This document shows positions 5,348 through 21,069 of a stretch of 64,000 bases of DNA, in pieces (position 1 is the first letter of the stretch; each line of letters starts with the position of its first letter). The DNA lies in IMG/VR virus record IMGVR_UViG_3300037840_000188, positions 64,001 through 128,000 of that record. The stretch is one strand, 5' to 3'. This stretch comes from a virus. The notes beneath the pieces are model-generated. The model searched no databases, was not told the origin of the DNA, and saw nothing but the letters and a program-made list of their open reading frames with translations. The position numbers and the translations under genes were made by a program.

Positions 5348-6454
5348 CTACGCCACAAATCCGAACCCGGACGCATGATATCCCGGTAAGACCGATAAAT
5401 TGTGCGCTAGCAACACTTTACCGACTATTTTGGTGTTTCCAGCGCTGGGGATAAACCCATCATCATCCAGCGTCCCGTTGAACGGCGCATTCTTCGAAAT
5501 GCGGTACTTGATGTTCGGCTTGCGGGCGTTCAGGAACCAGATCGATTCGCCGCCCTGAAGGTTGCCGGACGGATACGCGGTCACCGCGCCGCCAGTGGTG
5601 TAAGACAGGTACCTGGTCGCCACGCGGTCGTTGGTGCCGCCGCTGGCTGTCAGGTAGGAGCCGGGAGCGTAACGAGAAGCCAGGATCACCGCACCGTTGT
5701 ATTCGAGGCCACGGAAACCGCCCTTGGCGATAGTGACGTTCTGGAAGCGCTGCTGAGTCTGATAGTTCGAACGAATGTAGCCCTGACCCTTGGCAGTTGT
5801 CAGGATGATGTTGGGCTCGTACTCGCCAGAACCATAGTTGACCGACTGGTACATGTTCTCCATCACCGGGAGGGTGATGTTCGCACCGGCGAAGTTGACG
5901 GGCGCGGGAGCCAGCATACGGCCACCATACAGCGAGCGAGTCAGGGTGCCATAGATCGGATAGGCCGAACCGTCCCAGCCGGGCGTCACGCCGTCAGAGA
6001 GGGCTTCATCGAGGCCGTTGATGACCTTGACATACGCGCCAGTCTGGCCCTGGAGATAGAGCTGGAGTGCGGTCTGCGCGCCGAGTTGCATGTAGGCGGA
6101 GTCCACGCGCTCTTCGACGAGCTTGATTACCGCGAGCGGCCCGTTGTTCAGCACCTTGATGTCTTCCTTGTAGAAGGGGATCATCACGGTCTGGTACTTC
6201 GGATCGAAGCGCAACTGCTGCTCGATCTGGCGCTGGTCGGCAGGCAGATCCTGACCCTTCGAGTACGAACCGCCATCCTGGACGTCATACTCGATGTTGT
6301 CGTTCCACGAAGAGCCGCCCTCGACCTCATCGAGACAGTTCTCGTCGAGGAAGGACATGAGCGGATCTTTATTGAATACGAGATCACGGAGCTTTGGCTG
6401 TTCGTCGATGTAGCGGCGAGTCGTGACTTCGATTTGCGAAAGAGTGTCAGGCGT
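5348..6454 (-). CDS. major capsid protein (probable ACG start at 6454; first ATG at 6358)
   Basis: Follows scaffold; ~368 aa; open frame extends 32 codons upstream of the ATG as (M)PDTLSQIEVTTRRYIDEQPKLRDLVFNKDPL. Confidence 0.8.
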   Translation of the reverse strand, partial: TPDTLSQIEVTTRRYIDEQPKLRDLVFNKDPLMSFLDENCLDEVEGGSSWNDNIEYDVQDGGSYSKGQDLPADQRQIEQQLRFDPKYQTVMIPFYKEDIKVLNNGPLAVIKLVEERVDSAYMQLGAQTALQLYLQGQTGAYVKVINGLDEALSDGVTPGWDGSAYPIYGTLTRSLYGGRMLAPAPVNFAGANITLPVMENMYQSVNYGSGEYEPNIILTTAKGQGYIRSNYQTQQRFQNVTIAKGGFRGLEYNGAVILASRYAPGSYLTASGGTNDRVATRYLSYTTGGAVTAYPSGNLQGGESIWFLNARKPNIKYRISKNAPFNGTLDDDGFIPSAGNTKIVGKVLLAHNLSVLPGYHASGFGFVA

Positions 6455-13354: not shown

Positions 13355-15340
13355 TCAACCCGATGTTGCTATTGTGGGTCCATTTGCATTCTGCTTGAGA
13401 CTTGGTGGGGCTTGGTCTGTCTGCTTCCGACCCGCCGAGTTCGCGATTAAGCCTATCCCGAGTTGCTGCTGAAGTGCCAGCCGACCAATTTCATCAGCAG
13501 GGATTTTTAATCCAGGAGGAGAAAAATTATCTCTTCCCGCAGCTTCCATGAGAGAAAAAACGGATAAATATCCCATTTTAGCCAACATAAAGTCCTGAAG
13601 GAGCTCCTGCTGCCCGGCAGAATTAAGCAACGAAGATGGCGCGAATTTAAATGCAAACGACGCAAGCATTGCCTTCGCTCTTTCATACAGCGGTCGCGGT
13701 CCATCAGACATAAAAGCATCCAGCGTCGAGCCCACGTCACCAGGCTCCCCATCCGGCACATCATCTGGAATGAAGTTTCCAGCAGAGAAATCATAATCCT
13801 CTGCTGTTACTGCGTCTGGACCAAACTTCATTAACCGCTTGGAAAGTGTATCGAATTCAGCAATACAATATAAAAATTGTTCGCTAAATTCCTTCATAAA
13901 CCCTTCCAGAATCCTTGATCTTAAACGGATTCCAGGCGTTTGAAACTTGGCGATGGTATCGAGTGTATCGTCGGATGGTATCTGATTTAACGACGCCATT
14001 CCCTGAATATTCGCCGTCCCTGCCGCCTCCCGCATCCATTCTTCGAGCTTCTCGATATGCGTCCAGATTGACTGCGGAAGAGTAGGCGGATTAACGATCT
14101 GAATTCCCTTCCCAGAAGCCGGATTAGATCTCACTTTATATCCGGCGACCGCCGAATTAAACTTAGTAAACTCGCTGCGGGAAACATTGCGATCCGCAAT
14201 AGCACCAGGCTGCGCAATTTGAGCGGCATTATTATCCACCACTCGACACAGACCGTTCAGCGACTCATTAAGCGGAAGAAGGTCCCAGAGCGGGGCCTTC
14301 CCCAAGAACGACATCGGCCACGGATTCAACGTGAGCTTGATGAGGGGATATTGACCATGCCAGTACGGCGACGTATCGTCATAAAGCATGACGCCGTTTG
14401 ACCATACAATCATCCGCTTAAACGGGTAGAGCGGCATCCCGGGCTTGACCTTGTATGACCATTGATTCTGCCCGACTAGTTCGCCTTTTTCGTTTTTCTC
14501 CCAACCCCCCATGTAGACATCGTGTTTATATGGATTAGTGCGCGGGTCGTCCAGATAGAGGGTACGCAGAAAGCACGTGGGAGTCTTTGGAATTGGGGCG
14601 TCTGCATGCTTCCGGTCTGGAGATAACGGCCCAGTAACCGAACTCTTGCCGGTAACTGCCCCCACTGCGTGAAGAAACCACCCGAAGATAGATTGCCCGC
14701 CAACGTTAGGGGCTACGTCTTTTCCGTACTCTGATTTAATCCATGCTGGAGTTTTTGCCTGATTGAGGATGACGCCCTCAGCATCCTGAAGGGTGTGATA
14801 CGAGATGGGTCCGATTGGAATTACGTTTCGTGGATCGACGGCATCCACCATCATGTCATTCAGGCGGCGGGAGTAATACAAGTGGGCATAGCCCGTACCG
14901 CAACACGTGTAGTATCGAATTACATCACTGATCCGCAGGTCGATGCAGCGCTGCGTATACCAAGCCGAAGCTTCTTTATTGGATATTCTAGCCTGATTTT
15001 CGTACTTGGGATTATTCGTGGAGTAGTTCCAAAACACCCGTGCGTCGGTCAGCATCGCCGTGATATCTTCAGCGGTAATTGCCACCTTGTTGACCCGAGT
15101 GTTACTCAGGGGGCGCGGCGTCGGAGCATAACTGGCATTCGATGAGGTCTTTTCGTAAGCGAAAATCGCCCCGATGGTCTTGTCGATCTTGTCGTACCCA
15201 ACCTGCGCCTCAATAAACTCCTGCCCCTGTTTAAGGCGAGCCTCGCACCAGCTGATGATCGCGTAATCCCGCGTCCCCGGCTTAGCAGGATCGGGCTCAG
15301 GCAGAGGCGGCAAATCAAAGTCAGGCATTGCCTCTATCAT
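13355..15340 (-). CDS. portal protein (P22/podovirus-like size)
   Basis: 661 aa between TerL and scaffold/MCP; VDPRNV, SPYWHGQYP, DLLPLNESLN portal-like motifs. Confidence 0.8.
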   Translation of the reverse strand: MIEAMPDFDLPPLPEPDPAKPGTRDYAIISWCEARLKQGQEFIEAQVGYDKIDKTIGAIFAYEKTSSNASYAPTPRPLSNTRVNKVAITAEDITAMLTDARVFWNYSTNNPKYENQARISNKEASAWYTQRCIDLRISDVIRYYTCCGTGYAHLYYSRRLNDMMVDAVDPRNVIPIGPISYHTLQDAEGVILNQAKTPAWIKSEYGKDVAPNVGGQSIFGWFLHAVGAVTGKSSVTGPLSPDRKHADAPIPKTPTCFLRTLYLDDPRTNPYKHDVYMGGWEKNEKGELVGQNQWSYKVKPGMPLYPFKRMIVWSNGVMLYDDTSPYWHGQYPLIKLTLNPWPMSFLGKAPLWDLLPLNESLNGLCRVVDNNAAQIAQPGAIADRNVSRSEFTKFNSAVAGYKVRSNPASGKGIQIVNPPTLPQSIWTHIEKLEEWMREAAGTANIQGMASLNQIPSDDTLDTIAKFQTPGIRLRSRILEGFMKEFSEQFLYCIAEFDTLSKRLMKFGPDAVTAEDYDFSAGNFIPDDVPDGEPGDVGSTLDAFMSDGPRPLYERAKAMLASFAFKFAPSSLLNSAGQQELLQDFMLAKMGYLSVFSLMEAAGRDNFSPPGLKIPADEIGRLALQQQLGIGLIANSAGRKQTDQAPPSLKQNANGPTIATSG

Positions 15341-16461: not shown

Positions 16462-16671
16462 ATGCAGACCAGGAAAGCCAGTCCTCCGGCTGAGCAAGCT
16501 AAGGAGTTAGAGCGTCGCGTCAAGGCTCTCGAAGATCGACTCGCAGCAGGGCCAGGCGCTCAGGGACGTCCCGGCGAGAAGGGTGCCCGGGGCGAGAAGG
16601 GCGACACTGGCGAGTCTGGAAATCGCGGAGCAGAAGGACCACGGGGTCCTGGGTTTTGGGGAGGGGAATAA
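16462..16671 (+). CDS. short collagen-like (Gly-X-Y) protein
   Basis: GAQGRPGEKGARGEKGDTGESGNRGAEGPRG; RBS GGAGGT. Confidence 0.7.
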   Translation: MQTRKASPPAEQAKELERRVKALEDRLAAGPGAQGRPGEKGARGEKGDTGESGNRGAEGPRGPGFWGGE

Positions 16672-16674
16672 ATC

Positions 16675-16890
16675 ATGGAAACGTTGATCTATGTATTGAT
16701 CTGTATTGTCATATTCTGCATTCTTGCCTATGGGCTGCTTTGGGTCTGCGGCAAATTCTTCCCGGAATTTCCGCCCGCCCGCTGGATTTGCGGAGCCATC
16801 CTACTGATCGTTTTGCTTATTTTTGCGGCCAGTCAATTTGGTGGTGGAAGCGGCGTTCACTTCCCTGAATTTCGACACGATTCGCGTTAG
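16675..16890 (+). CDS. two-TM small membrane protein
   Basis: Two hydrophobic helices; RBS GGAGG. Confidence 0.7.
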   Translation: METLIYVLICIVIFCILAYGLLWVCGKFFPEFPPARWICGAILLIVLLIFAASQFGGGSGVHFPEFRHDSR

Positions 16891-17153
16891 CGCGGCGCGA
16901 GGAAGCAGTGAATCTTGCGGCCTTCGGTGCGAGTGCAGAGACGCCAGTCGCCCTTGTGGATACGTTGACCGGCGGTGAGAATTGTGGAGCGGAAGGAGGG
17001 AACCGTGAGATTGGTGGGGGTAACGACTTCCAGTTGCTGGCCCGGCTCAAGAGCCTTTAACTGGGAATTCAAACCGGACCAGTCGGATCGTTGTCTGGGG
17101 ATATCCAGAAGTTCACTGACCCGACCGATCCTGGTTCGAAGAGGACTCGCCAT
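16887..17153 (-). CDS. hypothetical protein (TROVE operon)
   Basis: ORF track, abuts upstream gene. Confidence 0.6.
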   Translation of the reverse strand: MASPLRTRIGRVSELLDIPRQRSDWSGLNSQLKALEPGQQLEVVTPTNLTVPSFRSTILTAGQRIHKGDWRLCTRTEGRKIHCFLAPR

Positions 17154-17498
17154 CTACCGCCCGGTTTTCGCCGGTGTGAGGCCGAGCTTGTTCTGGAGAG
17201 CCGCCATCTTCTTGACAGCTTCAGTCTTGCGCTCGCTCGTGGTCTTGTAACCCTCAAGCTCTGCTTCGATACGCTTCAGCTCTGCCATATCGGCAGCGCG
17301 AGTGCGACGGTCGATCTCATCACGCAGAACGGTGGTCGACTTCTCCAACCATTCCGGCGCGGAGATCTGAAGGTGGCCGTACTCATTCTCCAGATTGCGC
17401 GCGTAGGCCGATAGCGTCACCGCTTCGTCCATATCAAGAACGCGATCCAGATTCAGATTCTTCAATGCCTGTAACATTGCTTTAATCCTTTCTACCAC
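17154..17498 (-). CDS. coiled-coil hypothetical protein (TROVE operon)
   Basis: ORF track. Confidence 0.7.
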   Translation of the reverse strand: MVERIKAMLQALKNLNLDRVLDMDEAVTLSAYARNLENEYGHLQISAPEWLEKSTTVLRDEIDRRTRAADMAELKRIEAELEGYKTTSERKTEAVKKMAALQNKLGLTPAKTGR

Positions 17499-17503
17499 GA
17501 AGC

Positions 17504-18097
17504 TCAGCGCGAGCGCGGCTTGGCAGTTATTTTTCGCAAATCATTCAAGCGCTCGACGAGCGCCTCGTTAGCCAGGTAAGTCTTGTAATTTATCTCATCC
17601 GGCTGATTTAGATAATGCATATCCGAGGAAACACGACCATATTCGGATGAGGCTATCCACGCCGAATATTCCATGCTCCCCCGAAGCTTATTACAGCGAC
17701 GGCAGGCGCTAACTAGATTGTCCTCAGCCGTCGCCCCACCATCCTCCCAGAGAATTACGTGATCCACCGTTAATGGCTTTTCTTGACCACAGTACCTACA
17801 CCGAAAGTGATCTCTCCGAAAGACATTCCAGCTGACGAACTGATCTATCTGCCGCTGGCTCTTTCGAAGAATCGCCTTTCCCGGCCCTCGCACATCGAGC
17901 ACGTCGGACTGATTCAGGAAGCGCTCCCACTGAGCGGTGTCCATCACGAGCAGTTCGTGCTCGCCCGCGAGGTCTTCGTCTGGTAACGGGACGAGATACA
18001 CTTTCCCGTTACCAGTCCAGATCGCACCGCCGAGTTGAATCGTGTGGCCGACTTCGAGGATGTCGAGGTCGGCTAACGTCACCTGAGTGGCGGTCAT
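17504..18097 (-). CDS. HNH endonuclease (McrA-like core) coupled to TROVE gene
   Basis: RDHFRCRYCG..LTVDHV....GG...DNLVSACRRCN; ATGA overlap. Confidence 0.85.
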   Translation of the reverse strand: MTATQVTLADLDILEVGHTIQLGGAIWTGNGKVYLVPLPDEDLAGEHELLVMDTAQWERFLNQSDVLDVRGPGKAILRKSQRQIDQFVSWNVFRRDHFRCRYCGQEKPLTVDHVILWEDGGATAEDNLVSACRRCNKLRGSMEYSAWIASSEYGRVSSDMHYLNQPDEINYKTYLANEALVERLNDLRKITAKPRSR

Positions 18098-19614
18098 GCC
18101 GCCACCAACTCACGAACGCCGAGCACCTGATCGAGGGTCAACAGAGGGCACGACATGATCTTTTCAACGACACCAAACCGAGAGGCGTTCATCGACTGTA
18201 CGAGGTTTGGCAGCGCATAGTAGTCGGTCCCATTCGTCAGATCATATTCCGTGAACTGCAACCCAGCCGCTGCCATTGCGGCTCCAAACAGACGCGGACT
18301 TCCATTGCCCATCGCGTACCGAGCATCAACAAATGTCCGGTACAGGTAAACCGGAACCTGCTTGTCCGTCTGGCGCTTGAAATGTTGATACGCCGTCGCG
18401 AACATCGGGTGACTGTTCTCGCCTCCATCGCCCACGATTGCGATCCCATCGATATTAAGCTTCTTGTCGAGCGCCCAAGCGAGGCCAACGCCATACGAAG
18501 TACCACCGCTGGCGAAGATGAACTTCGTCTGCCCTTTGATCTCGTCAAGCGTCTTGCCGGTTACCTCGATAGGAGTCACGTCCGTATTGCAGAAAACAAG
18601 CCATACGCGGCCCGTCACAAACTTCGCAATAGCAGCACCGATGTGCGCTCCGAGTTCAATAGCCTGCTCCTGCGACTGGCTGCGATCCACGATCACAAGC
18701 CAATCACCCTCAATCCCCCGCCCCGCATCCTTCTGAGCCTGAATCTGACGCTCCTGGAGTTCGCGAAGCATGGTCTTCAATCCCTTGTCCTCGACTTCAT
18801 CAGCCGCGACCGAGGTCTTGAGCGTTGCCTTATTGCTCTTCGTCGCCTTCGCAACTTTCTTTCGGAAGGTGTCCTTCAGCGCGGCATCTCGCGAGAGACC
18901 CTTCTTTTCGAGGCTCTTTGCCCGCGTCACGACCTCGGTATCGCTCATTTGGTCCATACCGGCCTGAACGACCTCTGAGGCCTGCTGCGTGGCCTTTGCG
19001 CCAGTCATGGCACCACTGACCACCAGTGGAGACAAATGCCACTTCTGGATCGTTGCAGCAACCTGTGCCGGGGTCATCTTCGAGAGATTCTTGATGTCGG
19101 CGAAGATCGTACCCTGCGCCGGATTGCCGTTGAACAGCACATCCGCAGCGAAAGCTGGAATCTTCGCATGAGTCAGCGCGTACAGCGACTTCAAACTGCG
19201 CCGGTGGCGAGCCGCGAGGCGGTTCCATTTGCCCGGCTCGGCAGCCTTGGCGTCGAGATAAGAATGGATCATCCGTTTGATCGCCGTATCGCGACGGCGG
19301 GCCAAATTAAGTGTGGCCGAGAAGCGGAGCGCGCGAAGAATTTCGCGCGGCGACTGCATCGCCAGATGCGCCAGCGAGTTCTCGACAAGCTCATCGGGAA
19401 ACTCACGCGTGGCCAGCGTGATCACTGGGAGAGCGATCTTTGTATCCTTTATTTGCCCGTTCGTGAAGTCAAAAGCGATTAAATGGGCGAGAAATTCCGG
19501 GTCCTGACGGCAGGCTGCGCCGATCACGTTCTGATAGGCGGCGAGGTCTCCGTGAAGGGAAAGATTTAACTTCCCTACGATTTCGTTGCGCGTGATTCCG
19601 AGTTCTTGTGACAT
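18094..19614 (-). CDS. Ro60-like TROVE + vWA domain RNA-binding protein
   Basis: 506 aa; helical N-terminal region with DPEFLAHL; C-terminal vWA MIDAS DRSQS, GGT, IVGDGGEN; Y-like RNAs immediately upstream. Confidence 0.75.
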   Translation of the reverse strand: MSQELGITRNEIVGKLNLSLHGDLAAYQNVIGAACRQDPEFLAHLIAFDFTNGQIKDTKIALPVITLATREFPDELVENSLAHLAMQSPREILRALRFSATLNLARRRDTAIKRMIHSYLDAKAAEPGKWNRLAARHRRSLKSLYALTHAKIPAFAADVLFNGNPAQGTIFADIKNLSKMTPAQVAATIQKWHLSPLVVSGAMTGAKATQQASEVVQAGMDQMSDTEVVTRAKSLEKKGLSRDAALKDTFRKKVAKATKSNKATLKTSVAADEVEDKGLKTMLRELQERQIQAQKDAGRGIEGDWLVIVDRSQSQEQAIELGAHIGAAIAKFVTGRVWLVFCNTDVTPIEVTGKTLDEIKGQTKFIFASGGTSYGVGLAWALDKKLNIDGIAIVGDGGENSHPMFATAYQHFKRQTDKQVPVYLYRTFVDARYAMGNGSPRLFGAAMAAAGLQFTEYDLTNGTDYYALPNLVQSMNASRFGVVEKIMSCPLLTLDQVLGVRELVAA

Positions 19615-19622
19615 AAAAATAA

Positions 19623-19793
19623 AGGGCGGCGTGTCGATGGACTGTTGCTTTTAGGCAATCACCAAATGATTGTGCCCCGCCGTGGAGCCTCTCCCCCGTA
19701 AGCGCTTTTCAGCAGTTTTATGGGTGGGGGAGGTCGGAATCGAACCGACTGTCTTCTTGCGAAGATGCGTGTAAGTCCGTCAGTTTCCGCCCT
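19623..19793 (-). ncRNA. Y RNA-like C (YrlA-type, T-arm first)
   Basis: Terminal stem ACTGACGGACTTACACG...GTCCATCGACACG; T-arm GTCGGTTCGATTCCGAC. Confidence 0.7.
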
Positions 19794-19828
19794 AACTTAG
19801 TGCCTCAATAAAACGGAGGCGAAATCAA

Positions 19829-19995
19829 AGGAAGCCATGTCGATGCGCTTTGCTGTTATTGGCAAGTCATGCGCTCTACCGCTGAGCTAATCGCTCACTG
19901 GTGAAATCGTTTCCGACTAGTCGACCAGTGAACGATTCTGGATTTGAACCAGAGACCTCATGAATTAAACGTGTATGCGCGTCAGTTTGCTTCCT
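19829..19995 (-). ncRNA. Y RNA-like B (YrlA-type circularly permuted tRNA module)
   Basis: Same terminal stem; T-arm TCTGGTTCAAATCCAGA, closed acceptor-like stem, then D-arm TAGCTCAGCGGTAGAGC. Confidence 0.8.
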
Positions 19996-20033
19996 GTCTC
20001 GATGAAAGCCGCGTCGTCAGACTCTCGAACTTA

Positions 20034-20157
20034 TTCCCGGCATGTCGATGCGCGTTGATCCCTTACGGGAACGGTTGGAGTTGAACCAACTACCTAAAGC
20101 GTTGAAGGCTTTTGCTCTACCAAATGAGCTACGTGTAAGCGCGTCAGTGTCCGGGAA
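20034..20157 (-). ncRNA. Y RNA-like A (non-permuted D-anticodon-T module)
   Basis: Same terminal stem; GTAGCTCATTTGGTAGAGC, AAAGC-CTTCAAC-GCTTT, GTTGGTTCAACTCCAAC. Confidence 0.7.
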
Positions 20158-20185
20158 AACCTTTCGAACTTGCGTCCGAAACATC

Positions 20186-20216
20186 AGACTACCACATTAC
20201 CCATGTTACCTGTCAA
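20186..20216 (-). promoter_or_regulatory. putative sigma70 promoter of Y RNA/TROVE operon
   Basis: TTGACA-19-TAGTCT with TG extension. Confidence 0.45.
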
Positions 20217-20236
20217 GTGATTTCTGAAAATAAATC

Positions 20237-20725
20237 TCAGACCTTAACAGTCAGCACCGGATCTGAATAAGCCTGATCCAGAATCTTCGTCTCCTGAATG
20301 GGCGACCCGACATTCGTCAGCAGCTCCCGCTCCGCCGTAGCCGACCCCTTATCGAAGTGCGACGCCTCATGTACGAGCCCGGTCTTACGCTCGAAGTCGT
20401 TCCGCTTCTGATGGGTGTCAAGCTCGACGCGCTCATATCCCTGCCGCCGGTAGACTTCAGGCATCTGAAGATCGGCACGTGCGGGAATGCGGCGCTCGCC
20501 GGTGCGGGGGTTCATATACACCACGGCGCGTTCGGATGGGTGGATCGAGGAGATGCGGCTTCCACCGTGGGGGGCCGTATGTCCGTGCTTCCCGGATTCA
20601 TCCTGGCAATATGGCCAGGACCCTACCGGGCGCGGTCGGCCACATGAAGGACACAGATCAACAACACCAGCAGGAGCAGGGGGAGATTCTCGCGATTGAG
20701 CAGAAATTTCATTGACGGAAGTCAT
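20237..20725 (-). CDS. hypothetical phage protein (Zn-ribbon N-terminus)
   Basis: CPSCG...WPYC; downstream of TerL. Confidence 0.6.
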   Translation of the reverse strand: MTSVNEISAQSRESPPAPAGVVDLCPSCGRPRPVGSWPYCQDESGKHGHTAPHGGSRISSIHPSERAVVYMNPRTGERRIPARADLQMPEVYRRQGYERVELDTHQKRNDFERKTGLVHEASHFDKGSATAERELLTNVGSPIQETKILDQAYSDPVLTVKV

Positions 20726-21069
20726 TAGATTAGCACGCACACTTCCCAAACCTCTCCGCACACCGACACAGATTGCACCTGCAATCCCGAGATCGCGCTA
20801 TCCACGGCGACATCAGGATGGCGCTGAAGAGCAACGCAAGACCGAGGAGAGCAAGTAACGTGGGGCGAGTCAGGGTCATGTCCGCGAAGGCGTAAGCCGC
20901 CCGGTGACCACGGCAAATGCCGCTAGATCGTCCTCGTCTTTGATCGAGACGTTCACGCCGCCGAGGTCCACATCCATGTAATCTTTCTTCGTTACTGGAT
21001 CGATCTGCGGGGAGACCCGTACGACTTGATCGAGATTCAGGAGTTGGCCGGTTTTTAGCTTAAAGAGGG

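Follow-up and report, generated by a model that had tools for sequence, protein, structure and literature searches.

The stretch of DNA analysed here, which we call the window, comprises 64,000 nucleotides of the virus record IMGVR_UViG_3300037840_000188 (bases 64001-128000 of a 140,995-bp record rated complete, from an uncultured phage). It carries a minus-strand operon in which three structured RNAs with a common terminal stem, the handle, precede a gene for a protein with a predicted Ro60-like fold, a gene for an HNH nuclease, and two small genes. With gene coordinates taken from the list of open reading frames (ORFs) of the window, the operon consists of the following features.

20209-20214, minus strand: -35-like TTGACA that precedes the RNA array; no more than a candidate promoter.
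20035-20156, minus strand: RNA1 (class 1), a handle with a non-permuted tRNA-like module; coordinates set by the handle scan.
19830-19994, minus strand: RNA2 (permuted class), a handle with T-arm, long closed acceptor-like hairpin, D-arm and small hairpin, in a YrlA-like order.
19624-19792, minus strand: RNA3 (permuted class), a handle with GCAA hairpin, T-arm, 7-bp closed acceptor, divergent D-arm and a hairpin resembling an anticodon arm.
18094-19614, minus strand: Ro60-like protein of 506 amino acids, with a predicted helical-repeat domain (about residues 1-296) and a vWA domain (about 300-500) that has all MIDAS residues (MIDAS, metal ion-dependent adhesion site).
17504-18097, minus strand: HNH nuclease of 197 amino acids whose N-terminal domain is specific to its family; start codon and Ro-like stop overlap in ATGA.
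17154-17498, minus strand: p114, a conserved helical or coiled-coil partner protein of 114 amino acids that belongs to no known family.
16887-17153, minus strand: p88, a small gene for 88 amino acids that is found in the closest relatives only.

An initial annotation made from the sequence had placed these parts, all on the minus strand, and the ORF list and the sequence itself agree with it. The coupling of the HNH gene to the 506-amino-acid gene that it described is there too: the ATGA overlap appears on the plus strand as tcat at 18094-18097. Further downstream, the ATG of p88 at 17153 directly abuts the p114 stop. The spacer between the end of RNA3 and the Ro-like ATG is 9 nucleotides long and has no Shine-Dalgarno-like run within it. 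The proposed promoter was not confirmed. Its -35-like TTGACA lies inside the 13-nucleotide CTTGACAGGTAAC, which recurs letter for letter before the RNA array of L001, the closest viral relative, but a sigma-70 scan of 16500-20800 returned no complete promoter, and we therefore keep it only as a candidate. Terminators in the same region were at chance level only. A portal-sized ORF at 13355-15340 flanks the operon on one side.

The ends of the three RNAs can be read directly as 5′ ACUGACG..C.UACACG and 3′ CAUCGACA; the 5′ strands are ACUGACGCGC(U/A)UACACG and ACUGACGGACUUACACG, with no CGAA. In all three, the handle has an outer stem of 6 bp (GGGCGG/CCGCCC in RNA3, for example), an internal loop with (A)AAC or CAC on the 5′ side and ACAU or ACAC on the 3′ side, and an inner helix of 7-8 bp. 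This helix pairs UGA-C-NNNN with NNNN-A-UCG, leaving a C/A mismatch, and is followed on the 5′ side by (U/A)UACACG. Across relatives the stems covary, the loop letters, YAC on the 5′ side and ACAU or ACUU on the 3′ side, are fixed, and UACAYG closes the 5′ side. In a MAFFT alignment of 30 class 1 RNAs, UACA-G is invariant, the ACU of the 5′ loop is nearly so, and both stems compensate, with double changes in 21 of the 23 pairs called by RNAalifold. Compensatory changes were likewise found in 20 of 21 pairs among 32 RNAs of the permuted class, those of the T-arm, the 7-bp closed stem and the D-arm included. Both alignments have an invariant UACAYG in place of CGAA.

We scanned the 67 viral loci that contain a homologous gene, together with the window, for TACAYG together with 7 or more of 8 inner pairs and 5 or more of 6 outer ones. 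This gave 201 matches in 99,720 nucleotides upstream of the homologous gene versus 187 in 1,081,706 nucleotides elsewhere. Since such a scan requires pairing, its matches alone cannot prove pairing, and enrichment upstream of the gene and the MAFFT/RNAalifold covariation served as controls. With a stricter score of at least 13 and 58 non-redundant loci, there were 158 matches in 139,254 upstream nucleotides versus 38 in 856,066 elsewhere (both strands), a 26-fold enrichment upstream of the Ro-like gene. The claim that the three RNAs share a terminal stem is thus borne out by the ends themselves, the scan, the covariation and the upstream enrichment. In several relatives without an upstream HNH gene (L003, L017, L052 and L056, for example), the last handle abuts the start codon of the Ro-like gene.

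Four letters 3′ of the inner helix vary, being GACA, GACU, GAUA, GAUU, GAUC or GAAU. Among 18 loci, hand-picked for clean handles, the variant is identical in 76 of 91 pairs of RNAs from the same locus versus 565 of 1739 pairs from different loci, which would fit co-evolution with a locus-specific protein. Two observations concern the spacers of the array. AAGTT(C/A) precedes each RNA (about 20165-20170, 20029-20034 and 19800-19806, minus strand) and is also present in the spacers of L001 and L002; A(T/A)TAA is frequent just 3′ of the outer stem, and the RNA junctions read ...AATAAGTT... This pattern may mark where the RNAs are processed, or may provide each of them with a -10-like element. 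A handle-like stretch that separates RNA1 from RNA2, at 19996-20020 (minus strand), reads CUGACG..., a few bases, and then ...CAUCGAGAC, with no UACAYG. It may be what is left of a fourth handle RNA whose payload was deleted.

The initial annotation named the 506-amino-acid product a TROVE-vWA protein. By itself it matched little: Pfam stayed empty at E ≤ 0.01 and added no more than two rows, both at chance level, at E ≤ 10, and searches of PHROGs, NCBIfam and PADLOC gave no match. Its family comprises 392 proteins at E ≤ 0.001 among 8000 candidates examined, and 500 representative clusters at E ≤ 0.001 (165 at E ≤ 1e-30) among 1.84 billion representatives. When 40 single members were compared with Pfam, vWA families were what they matched, mainly VWA_CoxE (19/40) and VWA_2 (16/40), with vWA_Ro60 (PF25045) in 5/40 at a best E of 0.017; TROVE is not among the 25 listed of the 30 Pfam families matched. 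A profile of the 40 members gave weak matches in the PDB, and the sole full-length, colinear one was the Ro60 of Thermus phage phiLo (E 0.22).

An AlphaFold2 model built on the 40-sequence alignment (mean predicted local distance difference test score, pLDDT, 86.2; predicted template modelling score 0.65) is all-helical to about residue 296 and continues as an alpha/beta vWA domain. When this model was compared with the PDB by Foldseek, the first 12 listed rows (ranks 1-13) were all Ro60, Rsr or TROVE structures, phage Ro60 included, at E values of 1.3e-8 to 2.4e-6 over 470-530 alignment columns. The second-best structural match was 2NVO, the Rsr of Deinococcus radiodurans, and matches to vWA domains only ranked below the Ro60 matches. 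Among the viral models of BFVD, Gordonia phage VanLee, with its "Ro-like RNA binding protein", and TROVE-domain proteins supplied the best named matches. D310, S312, S314, T372 and D396 are invariant in the 40 aligned sequences and fit DxSxS...T...D, which we take to be the MIDAS pattern. The predicted protein thus has the helical HEAT-repeat ring, the C-terminal vWA domain and the metal site of Ro60, and the TROVE sequence model does not recognise it. Judged by the model, it is Ro60-like in fold and not a demonstrable member of the TROVE family. Of the annotation, the architecture of helical repeats followed by vWA, as predicted, was upheld and the TROVE signature was not.

What the handles enclose differs from RNA to RNA. 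At Rfam gathering thresholds there is a single match, a tRNA inside RNA1 (20134-20071, 51.8 bits) that covers positions 5-66 of the 71 in the model, which leaves a cloverleaf without the outer four acceptor pairs. This module has a D-arm, an anticodon arm with the loop CUUCAAC and a T-arm; a GUAA hairpin comes after an acceptor shortened to 3 bp. When the thresholds are relaxed, RNA2 can be aligned from one end to the other with the YrlA model RF02553 (27.2 bits versus a gathering score of 69; E 0.0015), and the T-arm and closed acceptor of RNA3 match tmRNA_permuted (29.9 bits versus a gathering score of 47). The closed acceptor of RNA3 is 7 bp, CUCCCCC/GGGGGAG. The Rfam scans gave no YrlA match for RNA1 or RNA3, and none of the three RNAs reaches 69 bits or has CGAA in its 5′ stem strand. 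The YrlA order of T-arm, closed acceptor-like stem-loop and D-arm within a 5′/3′ stem is present in RNA2, RNA3 and 30 relatives and not in RNA1. The minimum free energy of folding has a z-score of -3.3 for RNA2 and -2.6 for RNA3.

Both classes recur in relatives. A covariance model of class 1, R1, scores RNA1 at 120.4 bits over its full length, and its 55 matches with scores of 65 bits and above fall in 48 of 57 viral loci; true phage tRNAs score at most about 57 bits. Members of the permuted class are built as handle, optional hairpin, T-arm, 7-bp closed stem, D-arm, optional anticodon-like arm, and handle. The strict scan yielded 149 handle RNAs over the 58 loci. Their payloads are non-permuted in 37, permuted in 30, a T-arm only in 39 and a D-arm only in 1; the other 42 have neither a T- nor a D-arm motif and are mostly hairpins of 30-60 nucleotides. 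The number per locus runs from none (6 loci) through 1 (11), 2 (13), 3 (12), 4 (8) and 5 (4) to 6 (4). Because the strict scan gives 0-6 RNAs with mixed payloads, the constant handle with a swappable payload, as the initial annotation had described it for the window, is a property of the family, and the array of three RNAs, which had been singled out as notable, is of ordinary size. Some class 1 payloads are complete cloverleafs with a 7-bp acceptor and an encoded CCA inside the handle (L002 2860-2935 and the class 1 RNAs of L031, L037, L040 and L064). These complete payload tRNAs begin at the G of UACAUG, and ARAGORN calls the one in L002 a tRNA-Glu.

If the RNAs were decaying tRNA genes or relics of duplication, and the 506-amino-acid protein an unrelated vWA protein of the CoxE or MoxR-partner type, their adjacency would have no function. 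The Pfam matches to VWA_CoxE and VWA_2, the missing TROVE match and the unremarkable fold energy of RNA1 are what such a reading would expect. However, compensatory changes preserve both handle stems and the payload stems, the RNAs stay next to the protein gene from phages to cyanobacteria at 25-30% protein identity, and the full-length structural match is to Ro60 only. We had already come to disfavour this reading and consider it extremely improbable.

ARAGORN found 0 tRNA genes in the whole window. Elsewhere the phage has 23 ordinary tRNA genes in three groups on the minus strand (G000:C1 52,678-62,037; L076 2678-12037), the same strand as the operon and 22-31 kb distant from it. Matches of model R1 at 52-61 kb were considered as extra handle RNAs and rejected, being these 23 tRNAs with the handle columns unpaired; the handle is absent from all of them. 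Of 57 related viral loci, 18 hold at least 5 tRNA genes within the roughly 9 kb covered. The tRNA arrays of related phages include suppressor-type tRNAs with the anticodons UUA or CUA (L046 7446-7531, L056 1840-1914, L004 361-435 and L047 8996-9071), which hints at reassignment of stop codons in some of the phages. A viral contig also has a tmRNA called by ARAGORN (L063 25-437, tag peptide AEDNALPMAA) beside a tRNA array and the Ro-like locus.

The main rival explanation draws on this setting. It holds that the handle is the leader-trailer duplex of unusual tRNA precursors, removed by RNase P and 3′ nucleases to free working or regulatory tRNAs, and that the Ro-like protein is a chaperone or quality-control gate for them and does not hold a stable partner of the Y-RNA type. 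Several relatives have class 1 payloads with a full cloverleaf, a 7-bp acceptor and an encoded CCA, L002 2860-2935 among them, many class 1 payloads are called tRNAs by ARAGORN, and the system often sits within tRNA arrays. Chen et al. (PMC4201824) also describe a YrlA that is cut by RNase P in vitro and gains CCA in vivo. The window itself argues otherwise: none of its three payloads is a usable tRNA, given that ARAGORN calls none, RNA1 has 3 acceptor pairs, and both RNA2 and RNA3 have a permuted order in which the acceptor is closed. The window is thus without a full cloverleaf on a 7-bp acceptor stem, RNA1 being a partial one. Where anticodons are called in relatives, they are erratic (AAU, AAA, UCA and two-letter loops), and the 23 real tRNAs of the phage do without the handle. 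We regard the tRNA-precursor explanation as quite improbable.

The protein partners were counted by tblastn of the window proteins against the 67 viral loci. In 54 of them a p114 homologue follows the Ro-like gene at a short distance; the matches start at 5,451-6,353, and the Ro-like gene ends at about 5,416-5,611. In the p114 alignment P48 is invariant, and E61, I62 and L101 are conserved at 90% or more. Pfam, PHROGs, NCBIfam and PADLOC gave no match for p114, its PDB matches were weak coiled-coil look-alikes (E ≥ 0.0044), and the ESM Atlas gave no usable match. A likeness to the arm of seryl-tRNA synthetase, through Seryl_tRNA_N (6 of 33 members, best E 0.0081), is a weak coiled-coil resemblance, which we do not read as evidence. 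p88 has tblastn matches in 3 loci, L001-L003, at the same position in all, and no family match in Pfam, PHROGs or NCBIfam. An upstream ORF of 174 amino acids has no homologue in the 67 loci. Both of the "two small genes" of the initial annotation are therefore present, but the one for p114 is the most conserved partner (54/67), ahead of HNH (32/67).

In the 197-amino-acid protein, the HNH model PF01844 matches at 9.6e-13 (48.5 bits versus a cut-off of 21.4). The catalytic histidine and the zinc cysteines of the fold are in place, with D112, H113, N136, C100, C103 and C132 invariant in 26 sequences. Common to the homologues is an N-terminal domain of some 85 residues, specific to them, in which P39, D65, R78 and K79, outside the HNH core, are invariant; no fold match is listed for this domain, where the model has low confidence (pLDDT 57-76). 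Genes of this family are found in 32 of 67 viral loci, adjoining the Ro-like gene or within about 2 kb upstream of it on the same strand. In the window, L001 and L003 they lie downstream; most other loci have them between the RNAs and the Ro-like gene, immediately upstream of the latter. The IscB model NF040563 scores 44.6 bits over the HNH part only, versus a cut-off of 175, and we rejected IscB as an identity for this protein, which has no RuvC.

A selfish homing-type endonuclease could have lodged beside the Ro-like gene, as is frequent for HNH genes in phage tRNA islands, with no part in a ribonucleoprotein (RNP). Such an origin would explain why the gene is missing from 35 of 67 loci and why its position shifts between downstream (window, L001, L003) and upstream. 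Unrelated HNH-only matches do occur in the tRNA arrays of L005, L011, L044, L047 and L048, and PHROGs HNH models match the 197-amino-acid protein broadly. Against a selfish element stand the specific N-terminal domain with invariant residues outside the core, the placement on the same strand adjoining or at most about 2 kb upstream of the Ro-like gene, the ATGA translational coupling in the window, and catalytic and zinc residues that are intact in 26 of 26 aligned sequences. We consider a purely selfish HNH unlikely. The comparisons support a dedicated partner rather than a passer-by, and the coupled partner proposed in the initial annotation gains from the N-terminal domain and from its proximity to the Ro-like gene in 32 of 67 loci.

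Relatives of the system are not confined to phages. A search of genomes confirmed 339 stretches, of which 80 were kept. Among these 80, the closest are contigs of Acidobacteriota metagenome-assembled genomes (MAGs), at 68% and 40% identity. The Acidobacteriota relatives also carry p114, and two carry the HNH partner as well, for which reason Acidobacteria are the likely hosts. Relatives at 25-31% identity stand further off; they are chromosomal, come from cyanobacteria, Planctomycetota and other groups, and have neither p114 nor the phage HNH family. In 27 of 53 cellular loci searched, mostly cyanobacterial, model R1 finds a match of at least 65 bits upstream of the gene; the system, first described from a phage, is therefore not restricted to phages. 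Acaryochloris marina and one Gemmataceae genome have a canonical TROVE Ro and a member of the Ro-like family at different loci. In Acaryochloris, PF05731 finds the canonical Ro and not the Ro-like member, which matches VWA_2 only; the canonical Ro and its YrlA are listed in the supplement of Chen et al. (PMC4201824). The presence of both at separate loci in A. marina indicates that the two families are distinct and can coexist. Among 50,697 GenBank phage records there is one relative, in LR756511.1 (285759-287216; 28.6% identity, 95% coverage), an unannotated 595-kb uncultured phage, and none in a cultured phage.

The cellular Ro-like genes have neighbours of their own. Downstream of them are a conserved protein of about 290 amino acids (21/80), a ThiF-type E1-like protein (18/80), a JAB peptidase (6/80) and a second vWA protein, vWA_4 (14/80). 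Loci with such neighbours include L123, L133, L143, L154, L136, L106, L126 and others, and also the viral L065. To judge from these gene families, the set looks like a ubiquitin-like conjugation cassette tied to the Ro-like RNP. Other neighbours were seen in single cases: a Tpt1/KptA RNA 2′-phosphotransferase in a Phormidium MAG (L095 6531-7124) and endonuclease V in Acaryochloris (L123 1939-2616), each near the Ro-like gene. In Moorena producens 3L, 83 nucleotides just downstream of the Ro-like gene (L143 4854-4936) match positions 1077-1160 of bacterial 23S rRNA at 55.1 bits, a score that exceeds the Rfam gathering threshold; here the tRNA mimics may have a mimic of an rRNA fragment at their side.

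Taken together, these data suggest that the operon encodes a phage-borne RNP kit like that of Ro60 and Y RNAs, with a cryptic and very divergent family of Ro60-like proteins at its core, a reading to which we give a probability of roughly 0.7. That the Ro-like protein would bind the handle RNAs, by analogy with Ro60, is the part we hold to be very likely; the conserved handle and its conserved place next to the gene speak for such binding indirectly. A role in tRNA-centred conflict or quality control is favoured because the kit rides in tRNA-rich phages, and we put it forward tentatively, at somewhat less than even odds. The HNH protein as a recruited effector is a more doubtful proposal.

Several results weigh against the Ro60/Y-RNA reading. 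The check that the initial annotation had proposed, a search with the TROVE model PF05731, gave no match to the 506-amino-acid protein at E ≤ 0.01 or even at E ≤ 10; phmmer against the PDB gave no match; and hhalign of the family profile with the canonical Ro of A. marina returned a probability of 0.4%, which is not significant. There is thus no proof of homology to Ro60 at the level of sequence, and because the hhalign comparison is not significant we keep our claim to a Ro60-like fold. The YrlA model, also proposed as a check, gave RNA2 its 27.2 bits versus 69, and the handle lacks the CGAA, or GNCGAAN0-1G, motif that is thought to bind Ro in known Y RNAs. RNA1 folds no better than shuffled sequences (z-score -0.85). 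Strict handle matches are missing from 6 of 58 non-redundant loci and p114 from 13 of 67 viral loci, as the HNH gene is from 35. Class 1 anticodons vary freely across relatives, which fits a decoy for many nucleases or an absence of constraint. Finally, the sameness of the 3′ loop within a locus could equally come from recent duplication, and the 18 loci were picked by eye.

Should the Ro60/Y-RNA reading be right, the ring protein would bind the constant handle much as Ro60 binds the stem of a Y RNA, and each RNA would display a different tRNA-shaped module. These modules may engage proteins that recognise tRNA, either host tRNA enzymes or the tRNA-cleaving nucleases of host defence. During infection by a phage with 23 tRNA genes, the RNP might then act as a decoy for tRNA-cleaving defences or as an adaptor in RNA surveillance or repair. 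The vWA metal site would be a likely docking point, with p114 and the IscB/Cas9-type HNH as the best candidates, and either this site or the RNA may recruit both. The conserved glutamate of p114, E61, is the type of residue that a MIDAS site would be expected to bind. The leader also suggests autoregulation, since RNA3 ends 9 nucleotides before the ATG, with no Shine-Dalgarno sequence, and the last handle abuts the start codon in relatives: by binding RNA3, the protein may throttle its own translation.

A broader scheme would join the phage and cellular systems, and as a whole we think it rather unlikely. In it, the Ro-like ring and the universal handle would form a plug-and-play RNP platform for tRNA-shaped cargo, permuted, non-permuted or even full tRNAs with CCA, that watches or baits enzymes touching tRNA. 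In bacteria, namely cyanobacteria and planctomycetes, it would serve as a so far unrecognised immune or stress sensor with the ThiF/JAB/second-vWA cassette as its output, and phages would have captured it and swapped that output for the IscB/Cas9-type HNH protein and the 114-amino-acid adaptor as counter-defence against tRNA-cleaving immunity.

Ro60 and Y RNAs span bacteria to humans, and the role of the tRNA-like part of bacterial Y RNAs is still open. The Ro-like family would be a second Ro60-like family, invisible to sequence models and with cellular members, that seems to have escaped annotation, which suggests that surveys with the TROVE model have undercounted Ro-type RNPs. It makes a modular logic visible, in which one handle serves 0-6 RNAs whose payloads range from mini hairpins to permuted or complete tRNA shapes, and these natural payload variants are material for testing the purpose of the tRNA mimic. 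It also links Ro-type RNPs to tRNA-rich phages, where tRNA-directed defence and counter-defence are a live question, and to new partners: p114 and HNH in phages; E1-like, JAB and second vWA proteins in bacteria. Experiments are possible in cultured cyanobacteria that have cellular members, such as Acaryochloris marina MBIC11017, Fischerella and Calothrix.

Parts of this picture have precedents. Bacterial Ro60 (Rsr) with tRNA-like YrlA is known from Salmonella, Mycobacterium smegmatis and 22 phages (Chen et al. 2014, PMC4201824), and Thermus phage phiLo has a Ro60 that binds two Y-like RNAs of the phage, Yrl1 and Yrl2, as well as host PNPase (NAR 2025, PMC12135203); phage Ro60 with Y-like RNAs is thus already known. 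According to both papers, Ro60 binds the stem of Y RNAs, whose motif is GNCGAAN0-1G / CGAA, and Y RNAs tether Ro60 to other enzymes. In the literature covered we found no account of the Ro-like family, the UACAYG handle, its non-permuted member, arrays of as many as six RNAs, p114 or the HNH, or the bacterial E1/JAB linkage; that literature did not include Burroughs and Aravind 2016 on RNA repair systems, which may bear on novelty.

The operon was also compared with the HNH domains of known RNA-guided nucleases. The HNH protein of the window is below the 175-bit cut-off and, unlike IscB and type II-C/D Cas9, is a stand-alone protein of 197 amino acids with no RuvC, bridge helix or guide-RNA scaffold. 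With Ro60-YrlA the operon has in common a ring-type protein of helical repeats and vWA (here predicted), RNA genes directly upstream on the same strand, a terminal 5′/3′ stem, the order of T-arm, closed acceptor and D-arm in RNA2 and RNA3, and more than one RNA per locus. It would work in the manner of Ro60-YrlA but fails two tests that define membership, one by the TROVE sequence model and the other by the YrlA covariance model and the CGAA motif that belongs to it: the Ro-like protein of the window has no TROVE signature, RNA2 has 27 of 69 bits for RF02553, and the handle has UACAYG and a YAC/ACUU loop instead of GNCGAAN0-1G. The kit also includes a conserved non-permuted class 1 RNA, has up to 6 RNAs per locus, and has p114 and HNH rather than RtcB/RtcA as partners. 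The phiLo system (PDB 9KOP, 9L5Y) is again a phage-encoded Ro60-type ring with Y-like RNAs upstream. Its protein, however, has 14-16% identity with ours, its RNAs were found by a CGAA motif that is absent from the handles of the window, and the paper describes two RNAs, no array of tRNA-shaped payloads and no HNH (0 occurrences in PMC12135203). The Rsr-Yrn1-PNPase complex of Deinococcus radiodurans (RYPER; described in PMC4201824) includes PNPase, whereas no PNPase gene was seen in the window operon. RYPER has the same working model, in which a protein-binding stem and a second module of one RNA tether the ring to an enzyme; in the phage operon the candidates for the tethered partner would be the HNH and the 114-amino-acid protein.

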